This document shows, piece by piece, positions 5,214 through 57,240 of a stretch of 64,000 nt of DNA. The stretch spans positions 1,682-65,681 of the forward strand of contig WHTR01000004.1 of NCBI GenBank assembly GCA_009377635.1. Direction: 5' to 3'. Position numbers and translations under genes: made by a program. Below the pieces are notes generated by a model. The model searched no databases, was not told the origin of the DNA, and saw nothing but the letters and a program-made list of their open reading frames with translations. The stretch's first letter is position 1; the number at the start of each line of letters is the position of its first letter. The DNA comes from Chloroflexota bacterium. Its GTDB lineage: Bacteria; Chloroflexota; UBA6077; SHYK01.

Positions 5214-5268
5214 TCCTTCCCTCGCCGGTGCCCTCGCGGTCGCCTGGTTACTGTTCGAAGCCGGCTGG

Positions 5269-6138: not shown

Positions 6139-6162
6139 GCCGAACCTCTCTCTGCCGCTTCG

Positions 6163-9257: not shown

Positions 9258-9353
9258 TACGAGCGGCCGCGCGTGGTCAGCAGAAAGCCTGCCCTGAGGG
9301 TGACCAAGGGGAACCATGGGCTCGGGCCGGGTGGTTCATAGCGGAGGGCACGC

Positions 9354-10718: not shown

Positions 10719-10747
10719 GCGGGGTTGCTCGCCGCGGGGCTAAGGCC

Positions 10748-12372: not shown

Positions 12373-12433
12373 CAGACCCGCCCTCCATTCCCCATCACCC
12401 GCTCGGAAGTCCTGCTCGCGTAAAGGCCTCGGC

Positions 12434-15422: not shown

Positions 15423-15672
15423 TTGAGACCGGCAGGCGCGAATTCGTTCCCCGTAGCGGCCTGCAGGACTCGACCCCTGACAGTGCGGCGAGTTCCGTTG
15501 CCGCCTCAATGCGTCGTTTACCCGGGCGCGACCCTTGCTTACCTCTCGGTCGTCTTCCATGCCGGATCCTTAGCTGTGTGGTGACATCGCCCCGCGACGT
15601 TCGGGCGCTGATCTGGCCCCGCGGCGTAGCTGGCGTCGACCGCGGAGGCGACCGCCGGAGGAACTGGTGCAG

Positions 15673-19404: not shown

Positions 19405-19580
19405 TCGCCCTGCCTCGGTTCGAGACTCTCAGAGTGGCTCGTGTGCTGCCTTTAGCAAATCCGCGGTGTCTAGCACACCTGCGCCACCAACCTACCCAGA
19501 ATGCCAGACGCCTGTTGCGGCGCAGGTAATGGCCAGTTAATCGTCGGTGAACGAACGCACAGTCTGACTTCTTACTTCGT

Positions 19581-19608
19581 GTTCACCGGGCGCAACGTCG
19601 TCGTTCAT
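19581..19608 (+). promoter_or_regulatory. GTTCAC-N16-GTTCAT direct repeat (22-bp phasing) upstream of the GT2 gene
   Basis: Lies in the divergent response regulator/GT2 intergenic region, 40-67 nt upstream of ATG 19648. The hexamers belong to the GTTNAC family described in the findings. Confidence 0.25.
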
Positions 19609-19647
19609 CGCGAACTGAGAGAAAGGAGCAGACCACGCGCGCCGAAC

Positions 19648-20514: not shown

Positions 20515-21623
20515 GCCCTCTGGGGCTGCCCGACGAGGTTTGCAAGATCGCGGTGCTGCGCGCCAATGGGCTTGGCGACCTGGTGTTCGCACTGCCGTCG
20601 CTCGTCGCGCTGCGCGCACGGTACCCCGGCGCCGAGATCGTGCTGCTCGGCCGCGAATGGATGCGTGACTTCCTGGCTGGTCGGCCCGGCCCGATCGATC
20701 GGGTGGAGCCAGTCCCAGCGGTGCCGGGCCTCGGCCTGCTCGACTCCGACTCCTACTCAATCGATGAGACCGCGCGGCTGGAGCACTTCTTCGCCGCGAT
20801 GCGGCGTGAACAGTACGACGTCGCCGTTCAGATTCACGGCGGCGGGAGCCATTCGAACCCGTTTCTCCAGCGGCTCGGCGCACGGTACACCGTTGGCCTG
20901 AAAGCGGCAGACGCCCCGCCACTCGACCGCTGGGTCCCCCACACGTACTTCCAGCACGAGGTCATGCGCTACCTCGAGGTCGTGGCACTCCTCGGCGCGA
21001 CGACCAGTGAGATCGAGCCGCGCATCGACGTAGTCCCAAGCGACGTGGACGAGTCGCTTCGAGTCGTGCCTCACGACGTCAAGGCCATGGCCGTGCTCCA
21101 TCCGGGCGCGACCGACCCGCGACGACGCTGGCCAGTCGAGCGGTTCGCCGCCGTCGGCGACGCGCTCGCCCGAGCGGGCGCACGCGTGGGAGTGAGCGGC
21201 ATTCGCACTGAGTGGCAGCTGGTTCAGGGGGGCGTCGAGGCGATGGAAGAGCCGGCCGTCGATCTCAGCGGCCGCCTCTCAGTCAACGGGCTCTGTGGGC
21301 TCCTGTCTCGCTCGTCGGTTGTCGTCTCGAACGACTCCGGCCCGCTTCATCTGGCAGCCGCCGTCGGCGCGCGGACGACCGGCATCTACTGGTGCGGCAA
21401 CTTCATCAACGGCGGTCCGCTGACCCGCACTCGGCATCGAACCGCGATCTCCTGGTGCCTGGAATGCCCGGCGTGCGGGGCGAACAACCTATCGGTTCGC
21501 TGTGCGCATGCATCGTCGTTCGTGGCAGACGTATCCATCGATGAGGTCCAGACGGCCGCCCTGGAGCTCATCGCAGTTAGCTGCCAGCACGGTGTTCAGA
21601 GAAGCAGGCAGGGGCGGCGTTAA
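20511..21623 (+). CDS. family-9 glycosyltransferase (heptosyltransferase-like)
   Basis: KIAVLRANGLGDLVFALPSL..., HPGATDPRRRWP and VSNDSGPLHLAAAVG are GT9 hallmarks. The GTG start at 20511 overlaps the GT2 TGA. Confidence 0.85.
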   Translation: MSPLGLPDEVCKIAVLRANGLGDLVFALPSLVALRARYPGAEIVLLGREWMRDFLAGRPGPIDRVEPVPAVPGLGLLDSDSYSIDETARLEHFFAAMRREQYDVAVQIHGGGSHSNPFLQRLGARYTVGLKAADAPPLDRWVPHTYFQHEVMRYLEVVALLGATTSEIEPRIDVVPSDVDESLRVVPHDVKAMAVLHPGATDPRRRWPVERFAAVGDALARAGARVGVSGIRTEWQLVQGGVEAMEEPAVDLSGRLSVNGLCGLLSRSSVVVSNDSGPLHLAAAVGARTTGIYWCGNFINGGPLTRTRHRTAISWCLECPACGANNLSVRCAHASSFVADVSIDEVQTAALELIAVSCQHGVQRSRQGRR

Positions 21624-21629
21624 CGAGTC

Positions 21630-21646
21630 GTTCACGCGAAGTCACC
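21630..21646 (+). promoter_or_regulatory. GTTCAC-N5-GTCACC direct repeat upstream of the DUF2795 gene
   Basis: Sense orientation, 79-95 nt upstream of ATG 21725. A further GTTCAC is at 21703-21708. Confidence 0.3.
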
Positions 21647-21724
21647 GCGCCAGTGACGCCGCGCTGGGATAGTAGCAAGCGACGGGTATCGAGATCGATC
21701 CTGTTCACAACTGGCATGTGAGGA

Positions 21725-21928
21725 ATGAGGATGGCGAATCCCCTGAATCCGGTCCAGGCGCAGAAGTTCCTTAAGGGGCTCGACTACCCCGTCCATAAGG
21801 GCAAGCTCGTGGAAGCAGCTCGAACGCAAGGCGCGGACGAGAACGTCCTGAACACTCTGCAGAGCATGCCCGAGCGCCGGTTCAACAGCCCGAATGACGT
21901 CACTGAAGAGATCGGCAAGCTCAGTTAG
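21725..21928 (+). CDS. DUF2795 domain protein
   Basis: VQAQKFLKGLDYPVHKGKLVEAARTQGADENVLNTLQSMPERRFNSPNDV matches the DUF2795 pattern. The start may be the ATG at 21731. Confidence 0.75.
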   Translation: MRMANPLNPVQAQKFLKGLDYPVHKGKLVEAARTQGADENVLNTLQSMPERRFNSPNDVTEEIGKLS

Positions 21929-24290: not shown

Positions 24291-24926
24291 TCAGGCCGCC
24301 GCTGGCCGAACAGCCGCGGAGCTCACCAGGCGACGTTCGACTGCGTCCCAATCAATGTTACCGAAGAACGCCTCGATGTACTTGCTCCGCTCTGCGGGAC
24401 TGTAGTCCAGCATGAACGCATGCTCCCAAACATCCATGACCAGGATGGGCTTGAAGCCGGCCGGGTGGCCGTCTTGGTGCAGGGTCACCCAGTGGTTGCT
24501 CAATCGTCCGGTGATCGGATCCTGGTACAGGATTGCCCAGCCGACACCGCGAATCTCCCCCACGAGCTGGAAGTCCTCCTTCCACGCATCCCAGCCGCCG
24601 AAACTATCACTCACTGCCATGCCGATTTCGCCACGATCCATTGGCGCGCCGCGGCCGTGCGGTGTCAGGTTGCCGAAGTAATACTCGTGGAGGATCATGC
24701 CGTTGTACTCGAAGCCGGCGTTCCGTCTCAGCTCGGCGAACTCCCGCGTTCCCCCTTTGCCCTGGTCGAAGAGTTCCGCGATTCGCTCGTTGAGCTTGTT
24801 CGTGTTGCTCACATAGCCATCATAGAGCTTGAGATGGGCTTCGATTTGCTGGTCGGAGATGCCTCGCAGTCCCTTTAGCTGCGAAAAGTCGGTCGGCGTG
24901 TAGCGGGTCAGCATGTTCTGAGGCAT
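24291..24926 (-). CDS. sodA: Fe/Mn superoxide dismutase family protein
   Basis: C-terminal DVWEHAF signature, ILHEYYF, and N-terminal IEAHLKLYDGYV. GAGGAGGG RBS. Confidence 0.8.
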   Translation of the reverse strand: MPQNMLTRYTPTDFSQLKGLRGISDQQIEAHLKLYDGYVSNTNKLNERIAELFDQGKGGTREFAELRRNAGFEYNGMILHEYYFGNLTPHGRGAPMDRGEIGMAVSDSFGGWDAWKEDFQLVGEIRGVGWAILYQDPITGRLSNHWVTLHQDGHPAGFKPILVMDVWEHAFMLDYSPAERSKYIEAFFGNIDWDAVERRLVSSAAVRPAAA

Positions 24927-24996
24927 GTCGGGCCCTCCTCAACAAGAATCTCACTATCCTTATCGCGCGGTCCGGTTGCGGACGGCGTCGTCCCTC

Positions 24997-25013
24997 GTCA
25001 ACAGCCCGTCAAC
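24997..25013 (-). promoter_or_regulatory. GTTGAC-N5-GTTGAC direct repeat upstream of the SOD gene
   Basis: The plus strand reads GTCAACagcccGTCAAC. It is sense-oriented for the minus-strand SOD gene, 71-87 nt upstream of its ATG. Confidence 0.35.
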
Positions 25014-25215: not shown

Positions 25216-25602
25216 CTACGATTCCTCACGGCGGCGGCTCGCCTCGCGCTTGCCCTGGCACTCGATACACAAGGTCGCGTGGGGACGCGCCCGCAGCCGC
25301 TCAGGCGGAATAGGGCGGCCGCACACCTCGCATGTGCCGTACGTGCCCGCCGCGAGTCGTTGCCGGGCGGCTTCCGCTTGCGCCGCCTCTTCGTCGATGA
25401 CCTCGCGGGTCGTCTCTCCCAGCTCACGCTGGTACGTCGCGTCGGCAAGGTCACCAGTATGCTGGTCGACCGTCGTCAATTCGCCGGTGATGTCCCGCTG
25501 GTCCCCGGAAAAGGCTGCGTTGTCGACCGCCTCGCGCAGTCGCCGGAGATTCTCTGCCTTCTTCTCGAGCTCCTCTTCGGGATTTCGTTCATGTTCTGTC
25601 AT
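25216..25602 (-). CDS. DksA/TraR-family C4 zinc-finger protein
   Basis: C-terminal CEVCGRPIPPERLRARPHATLCIECQ (CxxC-N17-CxxC) after a coiled-coil-like acidic region. Confidence 0.85.
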   Translation of the reverse strand: MTEHERNPEEELEKKAENLRRLREAVDNAAFSGDQRDITGELTTVDQHTGDLADATYQRELGETTREVIDEEAAQAEAARQRLAAGTYGTCEVCGRPIPPERLRARPHATLCIECQGKREASRRREES

Positions 25603-25660
25603 TGACCCCTCCTCGTCTCGTTAACGTACCAAGAGGCTGTCACGGTGCGCGTTATTCGAT

Positions 25661-25677
25661 GTAAACGACCGGTGAAC
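25661..25677 (-). promoter_or_regulatory. GTTCAC-N5-GTTTAC direct repeat upstream of the dksA-like gene
   Basis: The plus strand reads GTAAACgaccgGTGAAC. It is sense-oriented for the minus-strand gene, 59-75 nt upstream of its ATG. Confidence 0.4.
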
Positions 25678-34740: not shown

Positions 34741-35774
34741 AGGAAGAACACCCGGTACTTGATGGCGCCCCACACCCGCCAGAAGACCGCTAGCAACGGA
34801 ATGAGGGCGGACGTCGCGACAACCTCGGTGACGTGCGTCGGCGCAGCCGACGATCCGGAGAGTCGCTCCGCGCACAAACGGCCGGTCAGGATAGCCCATG
34901 CGAGCACGCCTCCGAGCATGAGGCCGCGGCGCCGGCCCGCTGCCCCTGCGAGCGCAACGAGCATGGCAGCAACGATGCGGTAGTAGCGCCACGGGGGCCG
35001 CTGAATCCGCTCGCGGTACAGTCTCGGGTGCTTCTTGTAGAGAAGGGCGTTGTAGAGATTCTTCCGTTGCTGCCTGAGACTCACCCCCCACGTGCTCAGG
35101 CGGACGGGGTGGATGACGACAGCGTCGTCCGACCGCTCGAGGCGGGCCCCGGATTTGAGAATCCTGAAGAACACGTCGCTGTCCTCGCGCCAGGCCAGTT
35201 GGAACCGCTCGTCGAATCCGCCGACGGCACTCAGCGCATCCCGCCGGTAGAAGCAATTCGCCGTGACGAACTCGCCCCGCTCCAACCTTGCCACATCGCG
35301 CTCGTAGTCCGTCGGTCTCTCGGGGATCGGCACGAGCACACGGCCTCCTACGCCCACGACCCCGTCGCGGAACGCATCCACACCGGCTCGCAGCCAGCCA
35401 CGGTGCGGGATACAGTCGTCATCGGTGAACGCGATGATGGGGCAGCTCGCGACGCGCCACCCCCGATTGCGCGCCGCGGCCGGCCCATGGCTGCCCTGCA
35501 CCGCAACATAGCGGAACCGGGGCCCCCCTCGATGCTGAGCGGGATCCGTACGATCGGGTTCCGGAACGACCATGTCCGCGAACTCGGGCTTCAATTCACA
35601 TGCTCGCGCCATCGCCTCCACCTGCTGGTGGGTCTCCAAGCTCCTCGCGTCGTCGACAACAATGATCTCGTACTCGCTCGCGTCCAGATCTTGGTCCATG
35701 AGCGCCTCGAGGCAGCGCCCGAGATGCTCTGGTCGACGGCACGTGGGGACGACGACGGACACACGCGGTGTCAT
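34737..35774 (-). CDS. family-2 glycosyltransferase with C-terminal membrane segments
   Basis: VSVVVPTCRRPEHL...IIVVDDA...AFTDDDC, followed by hydrophobic C-terminal helices. Confidence 0.85.
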   Translation of the reverse strand: MTPRVSVVVPTCRRPEHLGRCLEALMDQDLDASEYEIIVVDDARSLETHQQVEAMARACELKPEFADMVVPEPDRTDPAQHRGGPRFRYVAVQGSHGPAAARNRGWRVASCPIIAFTDDDCIPHRGWLRAGVDAFRDGVVGVGGRVLVPIPERPTDYERDVARLERGEFVTANCFYRRDALSAVGGFDERFQLAWREDSDVFFRILKSGARLERSDDAVVIHPVRLSTWGVSLRQQRKNLYNALLYKKHPRLYRERIQRPPWRYYRIVAAMLVALAGAAGRRRGLMLGGVLAWAILTGRLCAERLSGSSAAPTHVTEVVATSALIPLLAVFWRVWGAIKYRVFFL

Positions 35775-37591
35775 GCGTCCACCGCTGGCTTCGCGACGAG
35801 AAACGGCCCGATCGCGAGCGCATCCAGCGGCGATGACCAGAACGACCGGAGCGCGTCTTCCGGCGAGCAGACGATAGGCTCGCTGCGCGTGTTGAAGGAC
35901 GTGTTGATCAGCACCGGAACGCCAGTTCGAGCCCGGAACGCCTTCACCAGGTCGTAGAAGAGTGGATGCTGGGACCGGTTGATGGTCTGAATGCGCGCTG
36001 TCCCATCGACGTGACGGACGGCCGGAATGCGGCCCGCCACGTCGGGTCGCACGGGGTAGACGAACAACATGAACGGTGACGTTTCAGCACGCTCGAACCA
36101 GCGTGAGGCCTCTTGCTCCAGCACGACTGGCGCGACCGGCCGAAAGTCCTCGCGGTCCTTGATGTCGTTGAGGCGGTCCTGCATAGACGCATCAATCGGC
36201 GACGCGAGGATGGATCGCGCGCCGAGCGCACGCGGCCCGAATTCCATGCGCCCCTGGAACCATCCAACAACGTTGCCTACGGCCAGCAGCGCGGCAACCT
36301 CCTGGGCGACGTCGTCCATCCGTCGATAGCTGGACTTGGACCAACGCAGGACCCGCTCGATGTCCTGATCCGAGTAGGCTGGACCGAGAAATGCATGATC
36401 CATGCGGAAGTGGCGGCTTTCGCTGCCACGCTCCCGGGCATCGACCCATAGGGCTGCACCCAGTGATGTCCCTGCATCACCGGCTGCGGGCTGGACCCAG
36501 AGGCGGGAGAATGGGCCGCGGTCGCGCAGGCAGGAGTTCATGACGCAGTTGAGCGCCACCCCTCCAGCCAGACACAGACTGTCGCTCCGCGTCGCCCCAT
36601 GCAGCCATCGGGCGAGCTCGAGCACGGTCTCTTCCAGCGCAACCTGGAGCGAGGCGGCTACGTCGTGATGACGGGCTTCAATTGGGGCATGTCGCTGACG
36701 CGGGGGTCCGAACCGGGCCTCCAGCTCTGGCGGCTGGACCGTGTAGCGGCCCTCACCCTGGACGCAAATAATCTCCTGGAACTCCCTCAGGAATCGTTGT
36801 TTCCCGAACGACGTAAGCGCCATAACCTTGTACTCATCGGACGAGCGTTGGAAGCCGAGGTACTCGGTCACCTGTTCGTAGAGAATGCCCAGCGAGTGGG
36901 GAACGTCCACCTGACCTAGTCGATCGAGTCGGTTCCCGTCCCCAATGCTGTAGCTGGTCGTCGCCCGCTCTCCCCGTCCGTCGACGGTGAGCACCGCTGC
37001 CTGCTCAAACGGGGAGGCGTGATAGGCGCTCACCGCGTGCGTCAGGTGGTGGTCCACGAAGTGCCAGCGATACGGACCGTCCGCGTGGACTTCCGGGAAC
37101 CGTTCCTTGAGATGGTGCGGCGCCCCACCCGCCAACTGCCGTGGGGCGTTCAGAACGTAGCACAGGAAGAGGGGCTCCCACGGCGACTCCCATGCCGATT
37201 TGGTCGGATGCGCGCTCGGTGCGACCGGCAGCGAGATCGCCGCTCCCACCTGATGCGATCCCAGTAGCTGATAGGGGTCGAAGGAGTAGGCAACATGATC
37301 CACGTCGGCGAGTCGGATTCCAGCGGCCCGGAGGCAATAGTCGATGGCCTGGAACGGCAGCTCGTACGTGGAAAATGGACCGGGACGCTTCCCGTGCTTC
37401 ACATGGTTGAAGCGTTCTTCCTCGGCCGCCGCGAGAACCTCGCCATCCCAGACGAGACTGGCCGACGGATCGTGAAAGACGGCATTGATGCCAAGTGTGT
37501 ACACGGTTTGCTGCCTTTCTTGGGACGATCCGCCAAACGGCGATCTCGCTCGCCTCTCGTGCTCCATCAACGAGGGATCGGTAGTTGTCAT
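35771..37591 (-). CDS. carbamoyltransferase (NodU/CmcH/TobZ family)
   Basis: YTLGINAVFHDPSASLVWDGEVLAAAEEERFNHVKH at the N-terminus and INTSFNTRSEPIV at the C-terminus. The ATG of the maximal ORF lies inside the repeat terminus GGATGAC. A GTG at 37504 (MYTLGI...) with an upstream GAAAGG is a likelier start. Confidence 0.85.
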   Translation of the reverse strand: MTTTDPSLMEHERRARSPFGGSSQERQQTVYTLGINAVFHDPSASLVWDGEVLAAAEEERFNHVKHGKRPGPFSTYELPFQAIDYCLRAAGIRLADVDHVAYSFDPYQLLGSHQVGAAISLPVAPSAHPTKSAWESPWEPLFLCYVLNAPRQLAGGAPHHLKERFPEVHADGPYRWHFVDHHLTHAVSAYHASPFEQAAVLTVDGRGERATTSYSIGDGNRLDRLGQVDVPHSLGILYEQVTEYLGFQRSSDEYKVMALTSFGKQRFLREFQEIICVQGEGRYTVQPPELEARFGPPRQRHAPIEARHHDVAASLQVALEETVLELARWLHGATRSDSLCLAGGVALNCVMNSCLRDRGPFSRLWVQPAAGDAGTSLGAALWVDARERGSESRHFRMDHAFLGPAYSDQDIERVLRWSKSSYRRMDDVAQEVAALLAVGNVVGWFQGRMEFGPRALGARSILASPIDASMQDRLNDIKDREDFRPVAPVVLEQEASRWFERAETSPFMLFVYPVRPDVAGRIPAVRHVDGTARIQTINRSQHPLFYDLVKAFRARTGVPVLINTSFNTRSEPIVCSPEDALRSFWSSPLDALAIGPFLVAKPAVDA

Positions 37592-37651: not shown

Positions 37652-37785
37652 GTTGATTGGGTACGATCACTTCTTCTCCGAGTATCGAAGCGGCGAGGAT
37701 CAATGCGAGTTGCGGCCGGTTAACTTCCCGTAAACGATTTCCAACGAGTTAGTGACAACCGTGCATGATTAAGAGCCCTTACGAC

Positions 37786-39139: not shown

Positions 39140-39418
39140 CTACCCCAGGAGCTTGAACCGAGATTGTGGCTGCCCATCGACCTCTTCCGTGTCACAATCG
39201 ATCACGCCGTCCAGGTTTCCGGAGATGCGGCTGTCGACGATGAGGACCGCTTTCCCGCCCGTCTCGATGACCTCATCGCCTTCGCTCGGCGTGTCGATTG
39301 TCATCCCGATCGTACCGGTCGCAGTCGGCACGAGCTTCACTCCCTGCCCGGCCGGCGCGTTATTGGCCTTCAGCATCTCGTCGAAGCCAGCCGCCGCTCG
39401 CTCAGTGACAGTGATCAT
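39140..39418 (-). CDS. HesB/IscA-fold protein lacking the conserved Cys ligands
   Basis: GGGAGG RBS before ATG 39418. MITVTERAAAGFDEMLK...GVKLV...VLIVDSRISGNLDGVIDCD follows the IscA/HesB layout, but the GGCSG and C-terminal CGCG motifs are absent. Confidence 0.5.
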   Translation of the reverse strand: MITVTERAAAGFDEMLKANNAPAGQGVKLVPTATGTIGMTIDTPSEGDEVIETGGKAVLIVDSRISGNLDGVIDCDTEEVDGQPQSRFKLLG

Positions 39419-39582
39419 CCGAACCTCCCGTGATGTGCTCATCCATCGTGGTCTCTCAGTTGTCGGGCGAGACTCCGCTTCACGCGTGTACGCGTGTCTC
39501 GGTATGGCCTGGCGTCGCCACCCGCGATCTCCCATCTTGGACTAACTATCGGGTAGCTAAGTTAAGCACCACATGGCGGAGT

Positions 39583-39599
39583 GTGAACCGTGAGTAAAC
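39583..39599 (-). promoter_or_regulatory. GTTTAC-N5-GTTCAC direct repeat in the hesB-like/hpf divergent region
   Basis: The plus strand reads GTGAACcgtgaGTAAAC. It is 93-109 nt upstream of the hpf ATG and 165-181 nt upstream of the hesB-like ATG, sense-oriented for the latter. Confidence 0.35.
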
Positions 39600-39691
39600 A
39601 CCCCTTTAATCCCCACGGTTGTACCCAGCATTTACGGCGCGCCATGCGGGGGTCAACGTCAACACCAGATAGTGAATTGAAGGGAGGTTCG

Positions 39692-40123
39692 ATGCTGATC
39701 ATCACCAAGGCCAGGAAGTTCAAACTGACGCAAAGTCTCAGGGCACTGGCTCAGCGCAAGGTGGCCAAGCTGGAACGGTACATGCCCGAGCTGGACCGTG
39801 CGGAGGTCGAGCTCAATATCGAACAGACGAGGAGCGTTGTCGATCGCGCAGTCGTGAACGTGAGGCTCTTCCACGGGAGGACCGTCTTCCGCGCTCAGGA
39901 GCGAGCCACTCAGATGCAGGTGGCTGTCGACTCGGTAGTGGACAAGCTTGAGAGCCAGCTGCAGAACTATCGAGCGCGCCAGCGAGCGCAGGTGCGCGGG
40001 CGAACAGCGGACGAACGCGTGGTCGCCGTGGAGGCAGGGCCCACGACTCCTCCTTACCCGCTGCTGTTGCGGCGCGAGACCAGCGAGGCGACGTCCAAGG
40101 CTGCGCAGTCGGTCCGCGAGTGA
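39692..40123 (+). CDS. hpf: ribosome hibernation promoting factor (HPF/RaiA family)
   Basis: GGGAGG RBS. MLIITKARKFKLTQSLRALAQRKVAKLERYMPELDRAEVELN...AVDSVVDKLESQL fits the S30AE/HPF N-terminal domain. Confidence 0.8.
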   Translation: MLIITKARKFKLTQSLRALAQRKVAKLERYMPELDRAEVELNIEQTRSVVDRAVVNVRLFHGRTVFRAQERATQMQVAVDSVVDKLESQLQNYRARQRAQVRGRTADERVVAVEAGPTTPPYPLLLRRETSEATSKAAQSVRE

Positions 40124-41172: not shown

Positions 41173-41517
41173 CTACCTTCCGGGCCTGAATCGCTCCGCC
41201 AACATCTCCGACGGAGCGACGTGGAGCTGATTCTCCACGCTGCGCACCCTGCTCACAGACCAGATGTCGTTCTCCGCCGCCTCGCGCTCGAGCGAACTGA
41301 GCACCGCGCCGGAGATCCGGACCGCACCCCTGTCGCCGACGTGCACGGCGACCTTCGAGCCGTCCACCGGCGGATCCTTCTCCAGCACAACCTTGATGGC
41401 CTCGGCGAGCGTCTCGTTGCTGTCAGGCTCCGGGTGCACGATCTCCAGCTGGCGATTGTCGAATCGCGGCGCGGCCAGCGCTCGCCTCGTCAGCTCGTCG
41501 TCATCGCGCTTCATCAT
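41173..41517 (-). CDS. BON domain protein
   Basis: LAEAIKVVLEKDPPVDGSKVAVHVGDRGAVRISGAVLSSLEREAAENDIWSVSRVRSVENQLHV is a single BON domain. Confidence 0.75.
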   Translation of the reverse strand: MMKRDDDELTRRALAAPRFDNRQLEIVHPEPDSNETLAEAIKVVLEKDPPVDGSKVAVHVGDRGAVRISGAVLSSLEREAAENDIWSVSRVRSVENQLHVAPSEMLAERFRPGR

Positions 41518-42515
41518 GGCCCCTGACGTTCGTACGGGATACGCCGGAGCTCTCCGCCCTCGCGGTCGCTCGCCCGCAGTGGCGATCGCCCGAGGATCCG
41601 CAGGCTATCCATCACGGTGCGGACTCCCGACACGCGGGCTGCGATGGCCAGCGCGGCGTCGTGATCTTCGATGCTGTCGACTCCGCCACCAAGAACGACC
41701 ACGCCGTCAGATGCAGATGGCACCACCTGGGACGGACTCACGCGCCCGTCGTCATGAAAGGCTTGGACGATACGCCCGACGAGAGCTTCATCTGGGTCGC
41801 GACTGGCGGAGCTCGCCTGCAGTGCGAGCCCGTTGCGAATACGCTGGAGACCCGGCACGTCCTGGGCGGCCCGTGTCGCCCGCTGGAGAGCTCGAGGGTC
41901 GGCCACCAGGCCGTGGAGATAGGCCCTGCCATCCCGGACGTAGCTTTCATTCTGATAGATCGTGACTCCGGCGTCCTCGATCGCGGCGTTGACCTCGCTG
42001 AGGAGCGCGGCATCGTCGACGATCGGGAATGGGCTATCGGTCGGGTCGATCTGGCCGACCCTGATGGCGCTGATCACGTCACGTACACCTTCGGCCCTCT
42101 CAGCGCCGCGCACCGCTGCGCGCTCCTCCGCCAGGCGGTTCACCCGCCCGACGAGCGTGACCACGCCGGTCTGGATCACAACACCCACGTCATGAAGCGA
42201 GACGCGCGGCTCGGCGGCAAGCCTCTCCCGCACGCGCTCAGCCAGCTCGTCGTCGGTCACGTATTGTCCTACGGCGACAGCCATGCGATTGTCGACGCGC
42301 CGGACGCCCGTGGCCCACTTGGTCAGGTGCTCGGCTCGGTGACGCTCGTACGGGGTGTGGACAGTTCCCAACAGTGTGATGCCGCCGCCCTCCAGGATGA
42401 CCCGGAGATCGTCGCTCTTGATCTGGCTATCACGAGCCAGCGTCGCTAGCACGCGCCCTCTCAGCTCGGCGTCCTCGATCTGACGCGAGTAACCATGGCT
42501 GAAGGCTTTGCTCAT
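41514..42515 (-). CDS. multi-BON-domain protein (about four repeats)
   Basis: GGGAG RBS before ATG 42515. Repeated units of the form D.ELa.rV...L......v....V.V...GvVtL.G.V......r.aA......GV..V.n.l. ATGA overlap with the next BON gene. Confidence 0.8.
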   Translation of the reverse strand: MSKAFSHGYSRQIEDAELRGRVLATLARDSQIKSDDLRVILEGGGITLLGTVHTPYERHRAEHLTKWATGVRRVDNRMAVAVGQYVTDDELAERVRERLAAEPRVSLHDVGVVIQTGVVTLVGRVNRLAEERAAVRGAERAEGVRDVISAIRVGQIDPTDSPFPIVDDAALLSEVNAAIEDAGVTIYQNESYVRDGRAYLHGLVADPRALQRATRAAQDVPGLQRIRNGLALQASSASRDPDEALVGRIVQAFHDDGRVSPSQVVPSASDGVVVLGGGVDSIEDHDAALAIAARVSGVRTVMDSLRILGRSPLRASDREGGELRRIPYERQGP

Positions 42516-43078
42516 GATCCGACTCCCGTGTAGGTTCACCCGATCGGAGGGCTGGGCATGAGATCCCGAAGTCCTGCGCACCCGACTGGCGGCGATGGGC
42601 AAGCTCTCGGCCCGTAGTACAACTCGGCTGAGGCCGTCGGCGGCCTTACACGTGCCGCCTTTCGACCACTTCGCCCTGGCGTGGGCTTCGCGCTTTGATG
42701 TTTCCAGCGCGTATCCCTACCCAACGTGACTACCCTGCGATGCCCCGGGCGGGCCAGTTGGTACACCGGAGGTTGCTCCACCCCGGTCCGCTCGCACGTG
42801 AAGTGGCTCCCCGACGCTTATCGCAGCCAGGCACGTCCTTCATCGGCTCCACGCGTCAAGGCATCCAGCGTGTGCCTTTTGTAGATTGCAGACATCAATC
42901 CCGGCAGCATGGAGATGTGCGGGTCTTCGGTTGTTCAGCTGCCGGCCCCTGCGGATCACGGGGGCCCGGGCCACCGGTCGGCCCTGATTAACCCTAACAC
43001 CATCCGAAAAAGCGCGTCCAGCTCCGGCCGTTGCAATCCGGCAGGATGTCGGTAAACGCGCGGCGAATAACACCATCT

Positions 43079-45512: not shown

Positions 45513-45779
45513 CTAGCGGAACGAGCCCTCCCTGCAGTGGCGGTCGATCTCGTCTCGGAGCATCCGGACGTGCTCCAGGTCGTCGTCCTTCATCTTTCTA
45601 TAGATCTGGCCGCAGCTCTGGTCGTCCCGGCAATCCGCGAGGTACTTGTCGTATCGCCAAACGGCGTCCAGCTTCACGCTCAATGTCTGAATGAGATTGT
45701 GGATCGGATCGCTCACCGCCGCCGTGGCGGGCGCCTCTGCATACAGGGTTTCGCGCTGGGTCTGCGTGGCTCGTGCCAT
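45513..45779 (-). CDS. small helical protein, unknown function (possibly ferritin-like four-helix bundle)
   Basis: AAGGAG RBS before ATG 45779. 88 aa: ...DPIHNLIQTLSVKLDAVWRYDKYLADC...DDDLEHVRMLRDEIDRHCREGSF. The functional call is weak. Confidence 0.45.
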   Translation of the reverse strand: MARATQTQRETLYAEAPATAAVSDPIHNLIQTLSVKLDAVWRYDKYLADCRDDQSCGQIYRKMKDDDLEHVRMLRDEIDRHCREGSFR

Positions 45780-45952
45780 CAGAGTGCTCCTTTGCACGTC
45801 CTTGAATCCGTCCGCGCCTGCAAGAGAAAGCCCTTGACCACAATCTTCCGGCACGAGAGTTGGCTACCCCGTAGCGGGGGATGAACAGAAGGTCAATCTC
45901 GGCTGCCGAGATCACTCACAGTCACCTCTTCCGTCGTTGATCCGCCCGATAC

Positions 45953-45969
45953 ATTCACACGGCGTTGAC
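45953..45969 (+). promoter_or_regulatory. ATTCAC-N5-GTTGAC direct repeat upstream of the alcohol dehydrogenase/BON pair
   Basis: Sense orientation, 137-153 nt upstream of ATG 46106. Confidence 0.3.
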
Positions 45970-46105
45970 CGATCGCAACGCCGCATGCAAGACGGGCTGG
46001 TCATCATTAGAAGTCTGAGAGGTACAGCTGGCGATACGCAGTCAGCCTGTGCGACACCGCCGCTGTTGTGACGATCCCAAATCGACGGATGCGAGGAGCA
46101 CAAAG

Positions 46106-47326
46106 ATGAAGGCGTTGGTCTTTCATGGAGTTGGAGATATCCGCCTTGACGAGGTGCCCGAACCACGCATCGAGCAGCCAGCGGATGCCATCGTCCGGGT
46201 CACTGCCAATGCGATCTGCGGGACGGACCTGCACCTGGTCCGCGGGACGGTACCGGGGGTGAGGCCGGGTACCATCCTAGGCCACGAAGCAGTCGGCTAC
46301 GTCGAAGAGGTGGGCCCGATGGTTCGCAACTTCGCTCCGGGCGATCGCGTGGTCATCGCGTCGACTATCTCCTGCGGGTACTGCTCGTATTGTCGCGACG
46401 GATACTTCGCGCAATGCGATAACGCCAACCCGAACGGACGACAGGCCGGGACAGCCTTCTTCGGCGGGCCACAGTCGAGCGGAGCGTTCCATGGGCTGCA
46501 GGCGGAGAAGGCGCGCATCCCCTTTGCGAACGTCGGTCTCGTCAAGCTGCCCGAGGAGGACGAGGTCGACGATGACCAGGCGATCTTGCTTTCCGACATC
46601 TTTCCCACGGGCTACTTCGGTGCGGAGCTCGCGGAGATCGAGGCGGGTAATACTGTCGCCGTATTCGGGTGTGGACCGGTCGGTCAGTTCGCCATCGCGA
46701 GCGCCAAGCTGCTCGGTGCCGGCCGTGTCCTAGCTGTGGACTGCATCCCCTCGCGCCTCGACATGGCGCGCGGGCAGGGAGCAGAAGTCATCGATTTCAA
46801 CGCTGATGACCCGGTAGACACGATCCGGGGCCTGACCGGCGGCATCGGGGTCGATCGAGCAATCGACGCGGTCGGGATCGATGCGAACCAGCCTCGCCAG
46901 GGGCCGGCCGCTCGCCGCGTGGAGCAGTATGCAGCGCAATTTCAGCAGGAGCTCCGCGAGATCGTGCCCGAGCCACGCCCCGTGGGCGACAACTGGCACC
47001 CCGGAGAGGCACCGTCGCTCGTCGCCGAATGGACGGTCGAATCGCTGTCGAAAGCGGGAACACTCTCGGTCATCGGCGTTTACCCGCCCTCGGACCGGTT
47101 CTTCCCATTCGGCACCGCGATGAACAAGAACCTCACCATCAAGATGGGGAATTGCAATCACCGGCGCTACATCCCGATGCTGCTCGAACTGGTCCGGACT
47201 GGCGCCGTCAATCCGGCCGAGATCCTCACCCACGTCAGGCCGATGAACGACATCGTCGCGGCCTACCAGGCGTTCGACCAGCGGCAGCTGGGGTGGATCA
47301 AGGTTGAGCTGGTGCCAGCCGCGTAG
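46106..47326 (+). CDS. zinc-dependent alcohol/formaldehyde dehydrogenase (MDR family)
   Basis: GAGGAG RBS. ICGTDLH, GHEAVGYVEEVG, structural-zinc Cys cluster CGYCSYCRDGYFAQC, and GCGPVG Rossmann motif. Confidence 0.9.
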   Translation: MKALVFHGVGDIRLDEVPEPRIEQPADAIVRVTANAICGTDLHLVRGTVPGVRPGTILGHEAVGYVEEVGPMVRNFAPGDRVVIASTISCGYCSYCRDGYFAQCDNANPNGRQAGTAFFGGPQSSGAFHGLQAEKARIPFANVGLVKLPEEDEVDDDQAILLSDIFPTGYFGAELAEIEAGNTVAVFGCGPVGQFAIASAKLLGAGRVLAVDCIPSRLDMARGQGAEVIDFNADDPVDTIRGLTGGIGVDRAIDAVGIDANQPRQGPAARRVEQYAAQFQQELREIVPEPRPVGDNWHPGEAPSLVAEWTVESLSKAGTLSVIGVYPPSDRFFPFGTAMNKNLTIKMGNCNHRRYIPMLLELVRTGAVNPAEILTHVRPMNDIVAAYQAFDQRQLGWIKVELVPAA

Positions 47327-47337: not shown

Positions 47338-47637
47338 ATGGCAGATCCAAACCGTCGCTATCGCGAGCCGCCCGAGGCAGGGGTTGGCGGCGAGGGGCCG
47401 ATCACAGACCAGACCGGGCTCGGCCCGACCACCGACGTTGAGATTGCAGAGGCGGTGCGCGCCGCGCTAGTCCTCGACCCGGACGTCGACCACAATCACT
47501 TCACGATCGACGTGGCGGACGGCGTCGTGCGACTCGCCGGCCAAGCTGGCTCGCGCGACGAGCGCCGACGCGCGGTCGACGTCGCAAACCATGTGTCGAA
47601 CGTTCGACGTGTCGTGGACCTGCCGGCGAAGGAGTAA
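47338..47637 (+). CDS. BON domain protein
   Basis: DVEIAEAVRAALVLDPDVDHNHFTIDVADGVVRLAGQAGSRDERRRAVDVANHVSNVRRVVD. Confidence 0.75.
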   Translation: MADPNRRYREPPEAGVGGEGPITDQTGLGPTTDVEIAEAVRAALVLDPDVDHNHFTIDVADGVVRLAGQAGSRDERRRAVDVANHVSNVRRVVDLPAKE

Positions 47638-51417: not shown

Positions 51418-51525
51418 GGTCGTCCCTCCCGACTGGCTTCTTCGCCGAGTTGCCGGCGGTGTGTTGGTCGAGTTCCGTACATCCCAGAATATGCGGCCGC
51501 GAGGTAGACAGGCCTGTGGAAAACC

Positions 51526-51568
51526 GTGAACGGTGAGTGAACGCGTAGAACACCGGTCAGTCGTGAAC
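51526..51568 (-). promoter_or_regulatory. cluster of GTTCAC repeats upstream of hsp20 (core GTTCAC-N5-GTTCAC)
   Basis: The plus strand has GTGAAC at 51526, 51537 and 51563, and GTAGAAC at 51545. They are sense-oriented for hsp20, 109-151 nt upstream of its ATG. Confidence 0.4.
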
Positions 51569-53586: not shown

Positions 53587-54033
53587 CTAGATTGCTTCCG
53601 GGAGCTGTCCTTCCGCCATGCGCTTGAATCGCCGTAGGTCCACGTCCAGCATCTGATCCACGTTCTGCGCGAGGTGCGCGACTGCCTCGCCCACGAAGCC
53701 CCCGGGCGCATCGAACCACTGCAGAATGACATGGACCAGCGTCTGACCACCCACCTCCGAGAACGTTACGTTGCCCGAGGTTCCGATCTGACTTCGACCG
53801 TCGATGGAACGCCAGCCGATGGAGCGGCTCGGCTCGTCCTCGCACGTCTCAGCGTCGAACTCGACCTGTGTTCCCATCGGTCCTCGGATCTTCCAGTGCG
53901 ACTCGCGACCATTCAGCTTTCGAACGTCGAGTACGTGCTCCATGAAGTTCGGGAAGTGCTCGAAATCGGACCACAACTCGTACGCCTGATTCGGAGAAAC
54001 AGCCACGCGCACTGATCGTTCAACGCGCTGCAT
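53587..54033 (-). CDS. SRPBCC (polyketide cyclase/dehydrase-like) family protein
   Basis: VERSVRVAVSPNQAYELWSDFEHFPNFMEHV...W.I.GP.G and following sequence is the typical SRPBCC pattern. Confidence 0.75.
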   Translation of the reverse strand: MQRVERSVRVAVSPNQAYELWSDFEHFPNFMEHVLDVRKLNGRESHWKIRGPMGTQVEFDAETCEDEPSRSIGWRSIDGRSQIGTSGNVTFSEVGGQTLVHVILQWFDAPGGFVGEAVAHLAQNVDQMLDVDLRRFKRMAEGQLPEAI

Positions 54034-54288
54034 CGCCCCGCTCCATGTTCTCGAATTGCCCGCTTACAACTATGCGGCGCAGCGGTTGAGGGGCTCGTGG
54101 CTGGGCGTGAACGGAGCGTTACGGCTGCCTCCCGCGCACGGTGCCCAATCGCGAATCGTGAACCGACCGATGCCGCGGCTCAGCTCTCCTCGGCTCACGA
54201 CGATGGTTGACGCTGCTGAGACGCTTCTCAACCGGGGCGGACACCTGGCGCTGAGAGACTTTCGTAGCCTGCGGTGGAGGAGCTGACG

Positions 54289-54783
54289 ATGCGGATGGTC
54301 TGGCGGAGAATCTCACGTCGACGCGCAGTTGCCGTGCCATCACTTCTAGCAGCTGGCGTTATCGGCGCGGGACTCGCATATCTCCTGGATCCCGATCATG
54401 GACGCAGGCGGCGGGCCATCGTACGCGACCGGCTGACCGCCGCGGCGCGCCGTGGCGCTCGCCAGTCGGGGCGGTGGGGTCGATATACGGCATCGACCGT
54501 TTCCGGGTGGAGCCTGAAAGCGGCCCGGCTCGGTCGCGTCGAGACCGAGCCGGTAAACGACCTGACCCTGTCGCACCGCGTGGAGAGCGAGCTGTTTCGG
54601 GATTCAAGGGTTCCCAAGGGACAGATCAACGTCAACGCCGAGCAAGGCGTCATCGTGTTGCGCGGAGCGCTTGATCGGCCAGAGCAGATTCGGGGAGTCG
54701 AGGAGCGCGTGCGCCGCGTTCTCGGCGTCGTTGACGTCGACAACCAGCTTCATCTGATCAACACGCCAGCCCCGAACGGCTGA
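54289..54783 (+). CDS. membrane-anchored BON domain protein
   Basis: GGAGGAG RBS 6 nt before ATG 54289. TM helix (AVAVPSLLAAGVIGAGLAYLL), then C-terminal BON (LSHRVESELFRDSRVPKGQINVNAEQGVIVLRGALDRPEQIRGVEERVRRVLGVVDVDNQLHL). Confidence 0.8.
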   Translation: MRMVWRRISRRRAVAVPSLLAAGVIGAGLAYLLDPDHGRRRRAIVRDRLTAAARRGARQSGRWGRYTASTVSGWSLKAARLGRVETEPVNDLTLSHRVESELFRDSRVPKGQINVNAEQGVIVLRGALDRPEQIRGVEERVRRVLGVVDVDNQLHLINTPAPNG

Positions 54784-54878: not shown

Positions 54879-56945
54879 TCAGGCGGCGGGCACGGCCTGC
54901 TCAGCCGAGGCCGCAGCGGCGGACGTCGCCAACGGGAGCTTGACGATGACCGTCGTGCCGTCGCCCTGCTGGCTGTCGATGTGGAACGTGCCCCCGTGCT
55001 GCTGGACGATCTGTCGCGACCCGGAGATCCCCAGTCCGTAGCCGCCGGTCTGTCCAACGACGTTGCCTCCCCGGGAGTATCGGTCGAAGATCGTGGGAAG
55101 ATCGCTCGCCGGAATTCCGACTCCCTCGTCTCGCACGGTCAGCACCGCCCACTGCGTGCTGCTGTCTTCTTGACAGAATACATTGACGGTGACGCAGCCA
55201 CCGTTCGGGCTGTATTTGACCGCATTGGCGAGCACGTTGCGCACCACCCGGTCAAGACGGAGCTGATCCCACTGGCCAATGATGCACACCGATTCAGCCG
55301 CCACGCGTATCTCGTGTCGATCGGTGGTGCATTGTGTGTCCGCGGCGACCTGTCGGGCCAGCGTCACGAGGTCAGTCGGCTGCGGCCGCAGGTCCAGCGT
55401 CCTTCCCACCTCAAGGGCAGCGACATCCAGGAGCTCGTCAAGCTGCGTCGCCATGGCGTGGGCCCGCTCGTGGATGCGGCGCATGTGGACGGCGAGCTGG
55501 TCGGACGATGGATTCGCCTCGCGCTGCAGTTTCAGCTCGAGGACCTGCGTCAAGGCACTCATGCCCGCCAGCGGGTTCTTCAGATCGTGTGTGACGCTCG
55601 CCAGGACCTCATTGCGCAGGCGCAGGGCCGTCTGTGCCTTGCTCAAGAGCCGGGCGTTGTCGATGGCCAGCGCGCAGCGACGGGCCACCTCTTCGGCCAG
55701 TGCCAGATCTCTCGCCGCGTAGCAGCGGCCCGGGTTCCCCCTTGCGAAGGCCATGGCGCCGAACGTCTCCCCGCGCGCCGACAGCGGCACGATCATGGCG
55801 GAGACGCTGCCGAGCCGTTGTAGGAGCCGTGCGTAGTCCGGAAGCACTGGGAATTGTCCAACCTGTTCCGGGTCATCCGTTGAGAAGAGCTGCGACTGCC
55901 CCGTGCGGATCACGTGCACGATGCCACAGGAGGCTTGGGACTCGACGGAAAAGGTTCCCACGCGGCCCTCCACGGCGACCTCATTGCTCGGCTCGACATC
56001 GGCCGCAGCAACGGGCGCTACGGTCCCATCGTCGTGGCACAGCGCAAGCACGCATCGATCGCCTAACGCGGGGATCGCGACGTGGGCCACCTGCTGCAGG
56101 GTGACCTCCTGGTCCAGCGAGGAGTTCAACGTTGCGCCCACGGCCGCCAGGAGCTGCTGGCTGTGTTCCATCCACTTGCGTTCGGTCATGTCGCGGGCAA
56201 CCGCGGAGGCGCCGATGAGCCGCCCATCCGCAGCGCGCAGTGGCGAGACCGTCAGCCACACGTCGATTCGCCGCCCGTCTTTGGCCACCCGTACCGTCTC
56301 GTAGGGTTCCACCCGATGACCGCGTCGAATACGTGCCATGATGGAAGGAAGCTCGTCCGGGCATTCGGGTGGGATCAAGAGGGAGATCGGCCGTCCCACG
56401 GCTTCGTTGGCCGTGTAGCCGTAGAGCCGCTCGGCGCCCCGATTCCAACTCGTGATCACGCCGTCCAGGGTCTTGCCGATAATCGCGTCCTGCGAGGATT
56501 CGACGATGGCCGCGAGATACGCGCGAGCCGCCTCCGCGGATTGGCGTTCGGTGATGTCCACCAAGATGTTCACGGCACCGATGAGATTGCCCTGCGTGTC
56601 GCGGAGGGGGTTAGCGTGGGCGAGGACGGTCGCACGCGTGCCGTCCCTGCGCTCGATGACGATCTCCTGACCGTTGAACTCTCGGTTCTCCCGGAGCGCC
56701 CGCGCCATCCAGCAGCGGTCGTGGCGAATCGGGGTCCCGTCCGTCGCAAAGAGGCGGAAGGAACCACAGAAACGATCCGCAGGATGATTCACCTTCGGCG
56801 ACCGCCCCCACAACTCCACCGCGTGCTGATTGAAATACGTGATCAAGCCGTCGGAATCGCAGGTGTAGGCACCTGCCGGCAGCTTTTCCAGCAGGAGACG
56901 AAGATCCGCTTCGCTGCGGTGGCCGACCAGACCTTCTCCTTGCAT
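54879..56945 (-). CDS. PAS-PAS-GAF sensor histidine kinase (cytoplasmic)
   Basis: AAGGAGAG RBS before ATG 56945. Two PAS/PAC units, a GAF domain, H-box LASVTHDLKNPLAGM, and HATPase N/G boxes (VLANAVKYSP, DEGVGIP, GGYGLGIS). Confidence 0.9.
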   Translation of the reverse strand: MQGEGLVGHRSEADLRLLLEKLPAGAYTCDSDGLITYFNQHAVELWGRSPKVNHPADRFCGSFRLFATDGTPIRHDRCWMARALRENREFNGQEIVIERRDGTRATVLAHANPLRDTQGNLIGAVNILVDITERQSAEAARAYLAAIVESSQDAIIGKTLDGVITSWNRGAERLYGYTANEAVGRPISLLIPPECPDELPSIMARIRRGHRVEPYETVRVAKDGRRIDVWLTVSPLRAADGRLIGASAVARDMTERKWMEHSQQLLAAVGATLNSSLDQEVTLQQVAHVAIPALGDRCVLALCHDDGTVAPVAAADVEPSNEVAVEGRVGTFSVESQASCGIVHVIRTGQSQLFSTDDPEQVGQFPVLPDYARLLQRLGSVSAMIVPLSARGETFGAMAFARGNPGRCYAARDLALAEEVARRCALAIDNARLLSKAQTALRLRNEVLASVTHDLKNPLAGMSALTQVLELKLQREANPSSDQLAVHMRRIHERAHAMATQLDELLDVAALEVGRTLDLRPQPTDLVTLARQVAADTQCTTDRHEIRVAAESVCIIGQWDQLRLDRVVRNVLANAVKYSPNGGCVTVNVFCQEDSSTQWAVLTVRDEGVGIPASDLPTIFDRYSRGGNVVGQTGGYGLGISGSRQIVQQHGGTFHIDSQQGDGTTVIVKLPLATSAAAASAEQAVPAA

Positions 56946-57240
56946 CGTTGCACTCTCCTTCTCATGGAGGAGCCGAAGACTAGGTGGTGCCAGACTCCTC
57001 AACGTGAAGCCCCGAGATGGTCTGCATATAAGTGTAGGGAGGTACCGTCTCCATTTCAACTAGAAGCTGCACGCACGTGCTCACGTGGCGGCAACGACCG
57101 AATCGTTGACACTCGCTGCCATATGTCTGTTACATCGGCCACTAAGACCGAGAAAGCTCCAGTTCGGACAAGGCAGAGGAGCGTTGGGTGCGTCCGCCGA
57201 CCGGTAAGCCCGCGGAATGCGCTGCCTCGTTCGCCACTCC

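Follow-up and report, generated by a model that had tools for sequence, protein, structure and literature searches.

In a 64-kb stretch of DNA from a Chloroflexota metagenome-assembled genome (MAG; 69-kb contig WHTR01000004.1, proteins MPZ131xx; the whole stretch is hereafter called the window), direct repeats of the form GTTNAC-N5-GTTNAC lie upstream of hsp20 and a series of other stress-related genes. These repeats belong to arrays that are probably activator sites for stress and dormancy genes in Chloroflexota, read by the family of the OmpR/PhoB-type response regulator encoded at 18604-19404 of the window. As judged from sequence comparisons, the arrays define a conserved and apparently undescribed regulon that would operate by a classical mechanism. 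What was observed directly is the motif with its fixed geometry and its conservation, together with the gene families enriched behind it and its genomic linkage to the regulator. An initial annotation of this DNA had proposed an operator-like motif common to stress genes, and each element of that interpretation survived computational testing and is to that extent supported. Specifically, the motif is conserved over dozens of Chloroflexota genomes and is strongly enriched 5′ of genes for universal stress proteins (USPs), DksA/TraR-type proteins and ferredoxins. Full-text literature searches for the motif or regulon in Chloroflexota found no description of either, consistent with its having been called undescribed.

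Read in the sense direction of hsp20 (minus strand), the site at 51526-51542 is GTTCAC-TCACC-GTTCAC, as initially reported. Exact matches to GTTNAC-N5-GTTNAC numbered six in the window, compared with 0.00 expected on both strands from 100 dinucleotide-preserving shuffles. The four exact pairs counted earlier are all real, and their excess over chance holds, but the count was too low, as matches at 21619-21635 (+) and 37719-37735 (-) have to be added. When up to one mismatch was allowed, a scan of the window returned eight distinct intergenic sites, each oriented to its downstream gene, versus a single match in coding DNA, at 38514; this exhaustive scan addressed the initial caveat about coding sequence.

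Conservation, which had been named as a check, was examined in 80 loci (1.07 Mb) from reference Chloroflexota genomes, retrieved with an alignment of 32 regulator relatives. These loci contained 29 exact matches, against about 0.6 expected, all in loci where the regulator was at least 57% identical. An origin by chance or base composition, with AT-rich hexamers simply conspicuous in GC-rich intergenic DNA, has a practically negligible probability. The higher AT content of intergenic relative to coding DNA does make GTTNAC more likely to arise there, but not one of the 100 shuffles yielded even a single match, the register, orientation and distance to the -10 box are fixed, and the motif is kept in dozens of genomes 5′ of the same gene families.

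Module architecture and promoter geometry

When the six sites of the window were aligned with 27 exact matches from relatives, the GTTNAC pair proved to be the upstream half of a rigid four-unit module, with the consensus cGTTTACC-N4-GTTTACC-N4-GCAACc-N5/6-GyaACC. The hexamer pair proposed as the operator is real, but the functional unit is the four-repeat array together with a -10 box. All units are on the same strand, and counted from the first G their conserved A's fall at +4, +15, +25 and +37; the repeats are direct rather than inverted, have a core of 6-7 bp and recur every 10-11 bp. Unit 4 ends at +38/39, and a TAnnnT box follows at +49..+54, 10 nt beyond the array. The A at +50 and the T at +54, equivalent to -11 and -7 in a -10 element of the housekeeping type, were each present in 25 of the 33 sites, and a TAnnnT-like hexamer began 31-34 nt after unit 2 in 32 of the 33. 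The -35 window carried zero information in this alignment. With the -10 box set at -12..-7, the array spans approximately -61 to -23, so that it takes the place of the -35 element and stops some 10 bp short of a -10 box of the sigma-70 type, as in class-II PhoB-like promoters. The OmpR/PhoB-type architecture inferred initially from the 11-bp phase of the direct repeats is thus borne out by the 10-nt distance to the -10 box and the absence of a -35 element.

A 59-nt matrix built from the 33 sites and applied with a cut-off of 12 bits recovered 132 distinct sites in the window and related loci together (1.13 Mb), compared with none in Markov-1 random sequence. Within the window, all 14 sites above 12 bits were intergenic and co-oriented with the downstream gene, while intergenic DNA makes up about 18% of its length. 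The 79 sites outside the training set (from loci L001-L052 and the window) gave the whole profile again, with about 8 bits each in units 1 and 2, 5-6 bits in units 3 and 4, and 5.6 bits in the -10 box. In Anaerolineae loci, the unit takes the variant form tTTTACC and the -10 box reads TATAAT.

The strongest module in the window is that of hsp20 (51488-51542, minus strand; 41.7 bits). Its array occupies 51504-51542 and consists of GTTCAC at 51537-51542 (unit 1), GTTCAC at 51526-51531 (unit 2), tCCACa (unit 3) and GTCTAC (unit 4), all on the minus strand. The -10 box, CATATT, lies at 51488-51493 on the same strand, so that the 5′ untranslated region before the Hsp20 start (51417) is predicted to measure about 64 nt. 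The same module is borne by an Hsp20 homologue in an independent locus (L101). The additional GTTCAC-like units that the initial annotation noted 5′ of the pair are present on the minus strand, as GTTCTA at 51546-51551 and GTTCAC at 51563-51568. They are, however, 9 and 26 nt upstream of unit 1 and outside the 11-bp phase, and the array itself extends from the pair in the other direction, towards hsp20.

Three other interpretations were dropped. A SigB/SigF promoter (GTTT-N14-16-GGGTAT), suggested by GGGATA/GGGTA-like strings, was rejected because what is conserved is a TAnnnT box at an unvarying +49..+54, and each repeat lies either too distant from this box or too close to serve as a -35 element. 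An extracytoplasmic function (ECF) sigma factor reading, with GTGAAC on the opposite strand as part of a -35/-10 pair, was discarded since that strand carries no gene and the spacing shows no conservation. Finally, the idea that the hsp20 leader forms a structured RNA or an RNA thermometer was set aside, as no Rfam family matched at the hsp20 site and the region folded no better than shuffled sequences (z = +1.6).

The response regulator and its linkage to the sites

The OmpR/PhoB-family regulator at 18604-19404 (minus strand, 266 aa) consists of a receiver (REC) and a Trans_reg_C domain, with Pfam matches to Response_reg (7.5e-26) and Trans_reg_C (9.7e-23) that are both past cut-offs, and has the recognition helix YLKVFISRLRAK. 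Its relatives share 73-84% identity. All 32 aligned orthologs retain the phospho-acceptor residues D8/D9, D53, T80 and K102, and the recognition helix YLKV[FY][IV]SRLR is constant from 100% down to 50% identity and altered in paralogs at 45% or less. In comparisons with NCBIfam equivalogs, the regulator scored under every named cut-off (bits/cut-off: MtrA, 205/300; YycF, 190.5/340; RpaB, 188.6/330; PhoB, 174.8/296.2; KdpE, 150.9/325), with MtrA, YycF/WalR and RpaB the three best NCBIfam matches. The best solved-structure match was RegX3. A second copy of the regulator was encoded on a 91-kb contig of the same MAG (P0002; MPZ12935.1). It is 98% identical, 244 aa long and without the 22-aa C-terminal tail, which points to either a recent duplication or two strains binned together.

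The regulator had been described as an orphan, and this does not extend to its relatives, where it sits in an operon of histidine kinase, receiver, second histidine kinase and response regulator. In 31 of 50 related loci, a kinase gene immediately preceded that of the regulator. In one of these, checked gene by gene (L002, 5856-10789), the order was a site, a PAS/GAF kinase, a 143-aa receiver, a receiver-kinase hybrid and the regulator. In this operon, the kinase has an HDLQEPLR-type H-box, the receiver is Rcp1-like, the hybrid is 410 aa long, and neighbouring genes overlap by 4 nt. A co-oriented site lay 3.4-4.5 kb upstream of the regulator in approximately 11 loci, matching the front of this operon, which recurs in similar form in about that number of loci. 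In the window, the regulator gene has a module of its own at 19498-19552 (minus strand, 23.5 bits), with the first unit 148 nt before the start codon, through which it would be autoregulated.

Sites were also found within 300 nt past the regulator stop codon, in nine close loci and in 13 distant ones (<57% identity, mostly Anaerolineae). In 10 of the 13, the site began 22-25 nt past the stop, and the downstream gene, where identified, encoded a patatin. The Anaerolineae loci (L058, L060-L070, L074 and L075) follow a common layout of regulator, four-unit tTTTACC site and then, in most cases, a patatin-like phospholipase with a leader of about 210 nt. The site lies about 13-25 nt from the regulator stop (132 nt in L061), and the layout is kept in 11-13 genomes. 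This arrangement suggests a lipid-remodelling output in Anaerolineae.

The sample that is independent of locus choice by regulator comprises the metagenome loci only, which were retrieved with the motif alone (GTTNAC-N5-GTTNAC-N8-AC-N10-AC-N11-A-N3-T). Among 55 high-GC, non-pstS loci so obtained (288 kb), six contained an ortholog of the regulator (53-79% identity). For a single-copy gene in a 4-Mb genome, about 0.07 orthologs would be expected in 288 kb, such that the excess is about 80-fold.

These observations make the window's OmpR-family protein the most likely reader of the arrays, to judge by genomic association. The initial annotation had singled it out as a candidate, and its own site, the operon site in relatives, the invariant recognition helix and the orthologs in six of 55 motif-chosen loci all favor that candidacy. 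It is unlikely that the activator site is genuine but is read by another OmpR-type or a SARP-like regulator, such as a paralog. Chloroflexota genomes do carry several paralogs of the regulator (42-69% identity), the boxes of OmpR-family proteins can be nearly alike, as seen in Streptomyces, where PhoP and GlnR compete for the same sites (PMC3561978), and assignment by proximity is not proof. Nevertheless, the linkage between site and regulator is kept across classes, with the only consistent site in Anaerolineae lying 22-25 nt past the regulator stop. Moreover, the window-type regulator appears to be autoregulated through its own operon, is strongly enriched in the motif-chosen loci and retains an invariant recognition helix.

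In the mechanism that we propose, the GTTNAC pair would supply the upstream, higher-affinity portion of a class-II activator site. Two head-to-tail dimers of the phosphorylated OmpR/PhoB-family regulator would load units 1 and 2 first, followed by cooperative loading of the weaker units 3 and 4, and RNA polymerase would be recruited via sigma region 4 in a PhoB/PhoP-like manner. The array, ending 10 nt before a sigma-A-type TAnnnT -10 box, would thereby substitute for the -35 element. In relatives, the regulator would be the last gene of an autoregulated operon encoding a PAS/GAF kinase, a single receiver, a receiver-kinase and the regulator itself. The predicted stress/dormancy output includes tandem universal stress proteins, Hsp20, superoxide dismutase (SOD) and a ribosome hibernation factor. 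It would also take in ferredoxin and proteins of the DksA/TraR-like, BON and DUF2795 types, along with phosphoribosyltransferases, glycosyltransferases of the envelope and the regulator's own sensor kinases.

Predicted targets, competing readings and other window features

A Pfam census of the 150 proteins encoded directly 3′ of Chloroflexota-type sites was led by Usp (22), followed by patatin (10, in Anaerolineae), histidine kinases with PAS/GAF domains (8), 4Fe-4S ferredoxins (6-7) and receiver domains (6). Phosphoribosyltransferases, DksA/TraR and DoxX were each represented by four proteins, and a long tail included multicopper oxidases, BON, MFS, radical SAM, 5′-nucleotidase, DegV, VIT1 and Hsp20. 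Frequencies at the family level were obtained with hidden Markov model (HMM) and phmmer searches of predicted open reading frames (ORFs), as single-query tblastn was too insensitive, recovering one USP only. By this count, an upstream site was present for 17 of 28 USPs (61%), all five DksA/TraR proteins, six of eight ferredoxins and both phosphoribosyltransferases. Across all ORFs of at least 100 aa, the corresponding figure was 79 of 1298 (about 6%, with spurious and operon-internal ORFs included), and among control-family genes it was three of 17, two of these three being the window's own site-linked genes.

These frequencies bear on whether the array might be a general promoter architecture of the clade, such as a UP-like, bent-DNA or basal-factor element or an alternative sigma site, which we consider very improbable. 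The density of sites speaks for it, with 14 in the 64-kb window, a level of about 2 per 10 kb that the closest relatives maintain over distances of up to 10 kb from the regulator, and the roughly 6% of all ORFs that have a site. However, the USP frequency far exceeds that baseline and the three of 17 among control-family genes. Further, density declines to 0.1-0.6 per 10 kb in more distant lineages (about 0.5, then about 0.1), units 3 and 4 lie 21 and 9-10 nt from the -10 box, neither at the sigma -35 spacing, and the -10 box is of the housekeeping TAnnnT type. The matrix scan also detected no site in the 25 kb of the window that lie outside 15.5-54.3 kb, where aromatic-catabolism genes, an inositol-phosphate synthase, a solute-binding protein and an enolase-superfamily gene are encoded. 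This argues for clustering rather than a universal promoter type.

There is some chance, albeit a small one, that in the closest clade the regulator acts as a near-global, phosphorylation-gated substitute for the -35 element, serving perhaps hundreds of promoters per genome at about 2 sites per 10 kb. If so, one two-component phosphorelay would switch much of the transcriptome between growth and dormancy, and the regulator, an OmpR-type protein, would play a part throughout the Chloroflexota comparable to that of RpoS, SigB or DosR.

A phosphate (Pho) reading had to be considered since the core of the motif nearly equals the PHO box GTTCACC. According to this alternative, which we regard as improbable, the arrays are Pho operators read under phosphate starvation by a regulator of the PhoB/PhoP/RegX3 type, the gene for which may lie elsewhere, and the stress genes belong to the Pho regulon. 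In its favor, both the core and the four-unit, -10-anchored geometry match actinobacterial PHO boxes (PMC2275107), and the metagenome pattern retrieved 33 actinobacterial-type pstS promoters, with GTTCACC units and identical spacing to the TAnnnT box. A PhoB-like regulator could therefore read the sites in principle. RegX3 is also the best structural match of the window regulator, and two 5′-nucleotidases, the only possibly phosphate-related targets among the 150, as well as the Anaerolineae patatin-like lipases, could scavenge phosphate. Against it, none of the 150 downstream proteins was of the PstS, PhoU, alkaline phosphatase, PhoD, PhoX or GlpQ type, and about 78 loci had no pst genes at distances of up to 10 kb from the regulator. 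Likewise, tblastn with PstS, PstC, PstA and PstB from the actinobacterial loci detected no pst genes in any Chloroflexota-type locus, and the 1.4 Mb of such loci contained neither pst nor pho genes. The regulator reached only 175 bits against the PhoB equivalog cut-off of 296, its recognition helix is KdpE-like (YLKVF...), not PhoB-like (VDVH...), and the partners conserved with it are the PAS/GAF kinases of a phosphorelay operon rather than PhoR/PhoU.

Several points weigh against the arrays being stress/dormancy activator sites of this regulator family. The flat site density in the closest relatives fits a regulon and a more general promoter class alike. The related loci were mostly picked around the regulator gene, so that the linkage evidence is partly circular, and part of the 55 high-GC metagenome loci may be actinobacterial. 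Sites were rare before BON (0/5) and Hsp20 (1/4) homologues in related loci. Additionally, the core repeat is almost identical to the PHO box of actinobacterial PhoP (PMC2275107; PMC4415409), and the Pho comparison was made with no Chloroflexota pstS promoter in the sampled loci. Finally, we infer binding, activation, phosphorylation dependence and the physiological signal, all of them from sequence.

The remaining window sites precede a varied set of genes, which were mapped with a codon-usage model. Pfam bore out the initial labels of Hsp20, zf-DksA/TraR, Fe/Mn SOD, DUF2795, S30AE/HPF, Zn-ADH, BON, GT2 and REC plus Trans_reg_C. Divergent from the regulator's own site, a weaker module (19570-19624, plus strand; 17.4 bits) precedes GT2/GT9 glycosyltransferase genes. 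It includes GTTCAC...GTTCAT, which was initially read as a site of its own at 19581-19608; the repeats are real and correspond to units 2 and 4 of this larger array. Similarly, the repeats read as a pair at 21630-21646 are genuine but form units 2 and 3 of the module at 21619-21673 (plus strand, 32.8 bits; -10 box GATAGT), which precedes genes for a DUF2795 protein (21731-21928) and a Rieske protein. The module of the Fe/Mn SOD (24291-24926) is at 24959-25013 (minus strand, 32.6 bits), with an M50/CBS protease gene downstream, and that of the DksA/TraR zinc-finger protein (25216-25602) is at 25623-25677 (minus strand, 31.4 bits). A carbamoyltransferase (35771-37591) and a long downstream operon have their module at 37681-37735 (minus strand, 31.0 bits). 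Among the strongest sites, at 36.7 bits, was the module at 39545-39599 (minus strand) of a 100-aa protein (39143-39442, minus strand), which had been labeled hesB-like, a label that Pfam did not confirm, the ORF having no match. Divergent from it is the module of an S30AE/HPF ribosome hibernation factor (39677-40123), at 39619-39673 (plus strand, 17.8 bits).

Further along the window, a 94-aa protein (45516-45797) with a weak EncFtn-like match has a module at 45843-45897 (minus strand, 24.3 bits), divergent from that of a Zn-dependent alcohol dehydrogenase (46049-47326) and BON gene (47338-47637) at 45953-46007 (plus strand, 26.0 bits). An SRPBCC/polyketide-cyclase-like protein (53590-54033), followed by rhodanese and CBS genes, has its module at 54069-54123 (minus strand, 23.7 bits). 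Two candidates are doubtful: a weak divergent module at 54206-54260 (plus strand, 16.1 bits), for which the closest ORF downstream, a 67-aa BON protein (54580-54783), would need a 313-nt leader, and the weakest of all, at 15516-15570 (plus strand, 13.4 bits), just past a GAF histidine kinase gene. This kinase (14059-15267, plus strand) is a candidate sensor partner of the regulator, and a PAS-GAF histidine kinase (54879-57059, minus strand) is a second. Back-to-back divergent arrays thus occurred in four intergenic regions (19498-19624, 39545-39673, 45843-46007 and 54069-54260). The unit-1 positions of the divergent pairs are 18-83 nt apart, and therefore two regulator tetramers would sit side by side. 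The wider stress island in the window includes several BON genes and genes for CBS, rhodanese, SRPBCC, AhpC, PfkB and ChaB proteins, an M50/CBS protease and two GAF kinases.

Two other features of the window lie apart from the sites. A 136-nt fragment of 23S rRNA (42677-42812, minus strand; 75-80 bits) covers positions 2666-2801 of the bacterial model, that is, helices 95-97, and is located in a 476-nt intergenic leader 5′ of a gene with four BON domains (41514-42602), with no rRNA operon nearby. Its sarcin-ricin loop is degenerate (CGUGCGAGCGGACC vs AGUACGAGAGGACC), and the fragment could be either a relic or an rRNA mimic. At 3-13516, an aromatic-ring catabolism cluster encodes three Rieske oxygenases, BphC-like and LigB-like extradiol dioxygenases and a hydrolase, and adjoins a myo-inositol-1-phosphate synthase gene. 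The synthase was about 80% identical even in Dehalococcoidia, Dormibacterota and Hyphomicrobiales; its matches are therefore not clade-specific, and it was dropped as a neutral-locus anchor.

Comparison with known regulatory systems

Chloroflexota are abundant in soils, deserts, the subsurface and wastewater, and their transcriptional regulation is almost unknown. To our knowledge, the phylum lacks a described regulator of general stress or dormancy. The arrays supply a searchable operator model, a candidate master regulator with a sensor phosphorelay and a predicted target set, comprising USPs, Hsp20, HPF, SOD, ferredoxin, DksA/TraR and BON/DUF2795 proteins, that reads as a persistence programme. 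Together these provide a first testable stress-regulon model for an understudied phylum and allow annotation of stress regulons in MAGs.

The closest known relative of the operator is the actinobacterial PHO box, as the 33 pstS promoters share its units and spacing. In Streptomyces, PhoP recognizes 11-nt direct-repeat units, G(G/T)TCAYYYR(G/C)G, with the core GTTCACC, and actinobacterial PHO boxes usually have two or four units at or next to the -35 position, the core units nucleating binding to weaker ones (PMC2275107; PMC4415409). The layout of the metagenomic pstS promoters (33 loci in L081-L197, including L120; e.g., L138 and L192) was GTTCACC-N4-GTTCACC...GTCACC, then 9-10 nt and CTAnnTTCG, and the register of their four units relative to the -10 box is that of the Chloroflexota module. 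Both systems have 11-nt direct repeats and an OmpR/PhoB-family reader, and the window units are often literally GTTCAC. They differ in that the Chloroflexota targets are stress and dormancy genes (pst/pho, 0/150), the consensus in relatives is GTTTACC with GCAAC-type units 3 and 4, and the host is a Chloroflexota bacterium whose regulator falls under the PhoB equivalog cut-off and has another recognition helix. On targets, regulator score and neighbours (PAS/GAF kinases and receivers), the system thus falls outside the Pho regulon, and a direct repeat of the GTTCACC type in a high-GC genome is not to be equated automatically with a phosphate box.

PhoB binds its sites head-to-tail and recruits sigma-70 region 4 (PMC4415409). 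The arrays resemble those of Escherichia coli PhoB in having tandem head-to-tail 11-bp repeats in place of the -35 element, with a contact to sigma region 4 that we infer here. The E. coli pho box is reported by Makino et al. to end about 10 bp upstream of the -10 box, which matches the 10-nt gap in the module. In contrast, the E. coli repeat (CTGTCAT), the regulon and the phylum are all different.

With KdpE of E. coli, the window regulator shares its closest recognition helix (KdpE, YLRIYMGHLRQK; window regulator, YLKVFISRLRAK), in which R200 is conserved, and many members of the regulator family are labeled 'KdpE' by JGI pipelines. KdpE binds TTTATA-N5-TTTACA (PMC3264566), the same geometry of 6-bp half-sites separated by 5 bp, and the half-site TTTACA has TTTAC in common with the motif. 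However, the regulator scored 151 bits against a cut-off of 325, it has a wing arginine that is absent from KdpE, and its array has four units instead of two. No kdp genes or KdpD were found among the regulator's neighbours or the 150 targets, and the protein is accordingly placed outside the KdpE group.

MtrA, WalR and RpaB, the best NCBIfam matches, are each a highly conserved, phylum-wide OmpR-type regulator, and in this respect resemble the window protein. In cyanobacteria, RpaB recognizes the HLR1 element, a (G/T)TTACA direct repeat, and controls a high-light stress regulon. The scores far under the respective equivalog cut-offs place the window regulator outside all three groups, and the targets differ as well.

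In gene content, the resemblance is to the DosR/DevR regulon of Mycobacterium tuberculosis. USPs, alpha-crystallin/Hsp20, ferredoxin, S30AE/HPF, phosphoribosyltransferase-domain proteins and GAF kinases occur in both, PfkB and CBS proteins are nearby, and the two-component genes are, or in Chloroflexota would be, autoregulated. DosR promoters also have tandem boxes in which a conserved primary box nucleates cooperative binding to weak adjacent boxes (PMC3177182). DosR itself, however, is a NarL/LuxR-type protein that recognizes an 18-20-bp palindromic box and is without homology to the Chloroflexota regulator, which has a Trans_reg_C rather than a GerE/LuxR domain and is paired with direct repeats. 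The Chloroflexota system therefore resembles DosR in its rich shared content and not in its regulator, a likeness of function and not of descent. Taken together, a DosR-like gene set under an unrelated regulator family and PHO-box-like DNA would represent convergence with mycobacteria.

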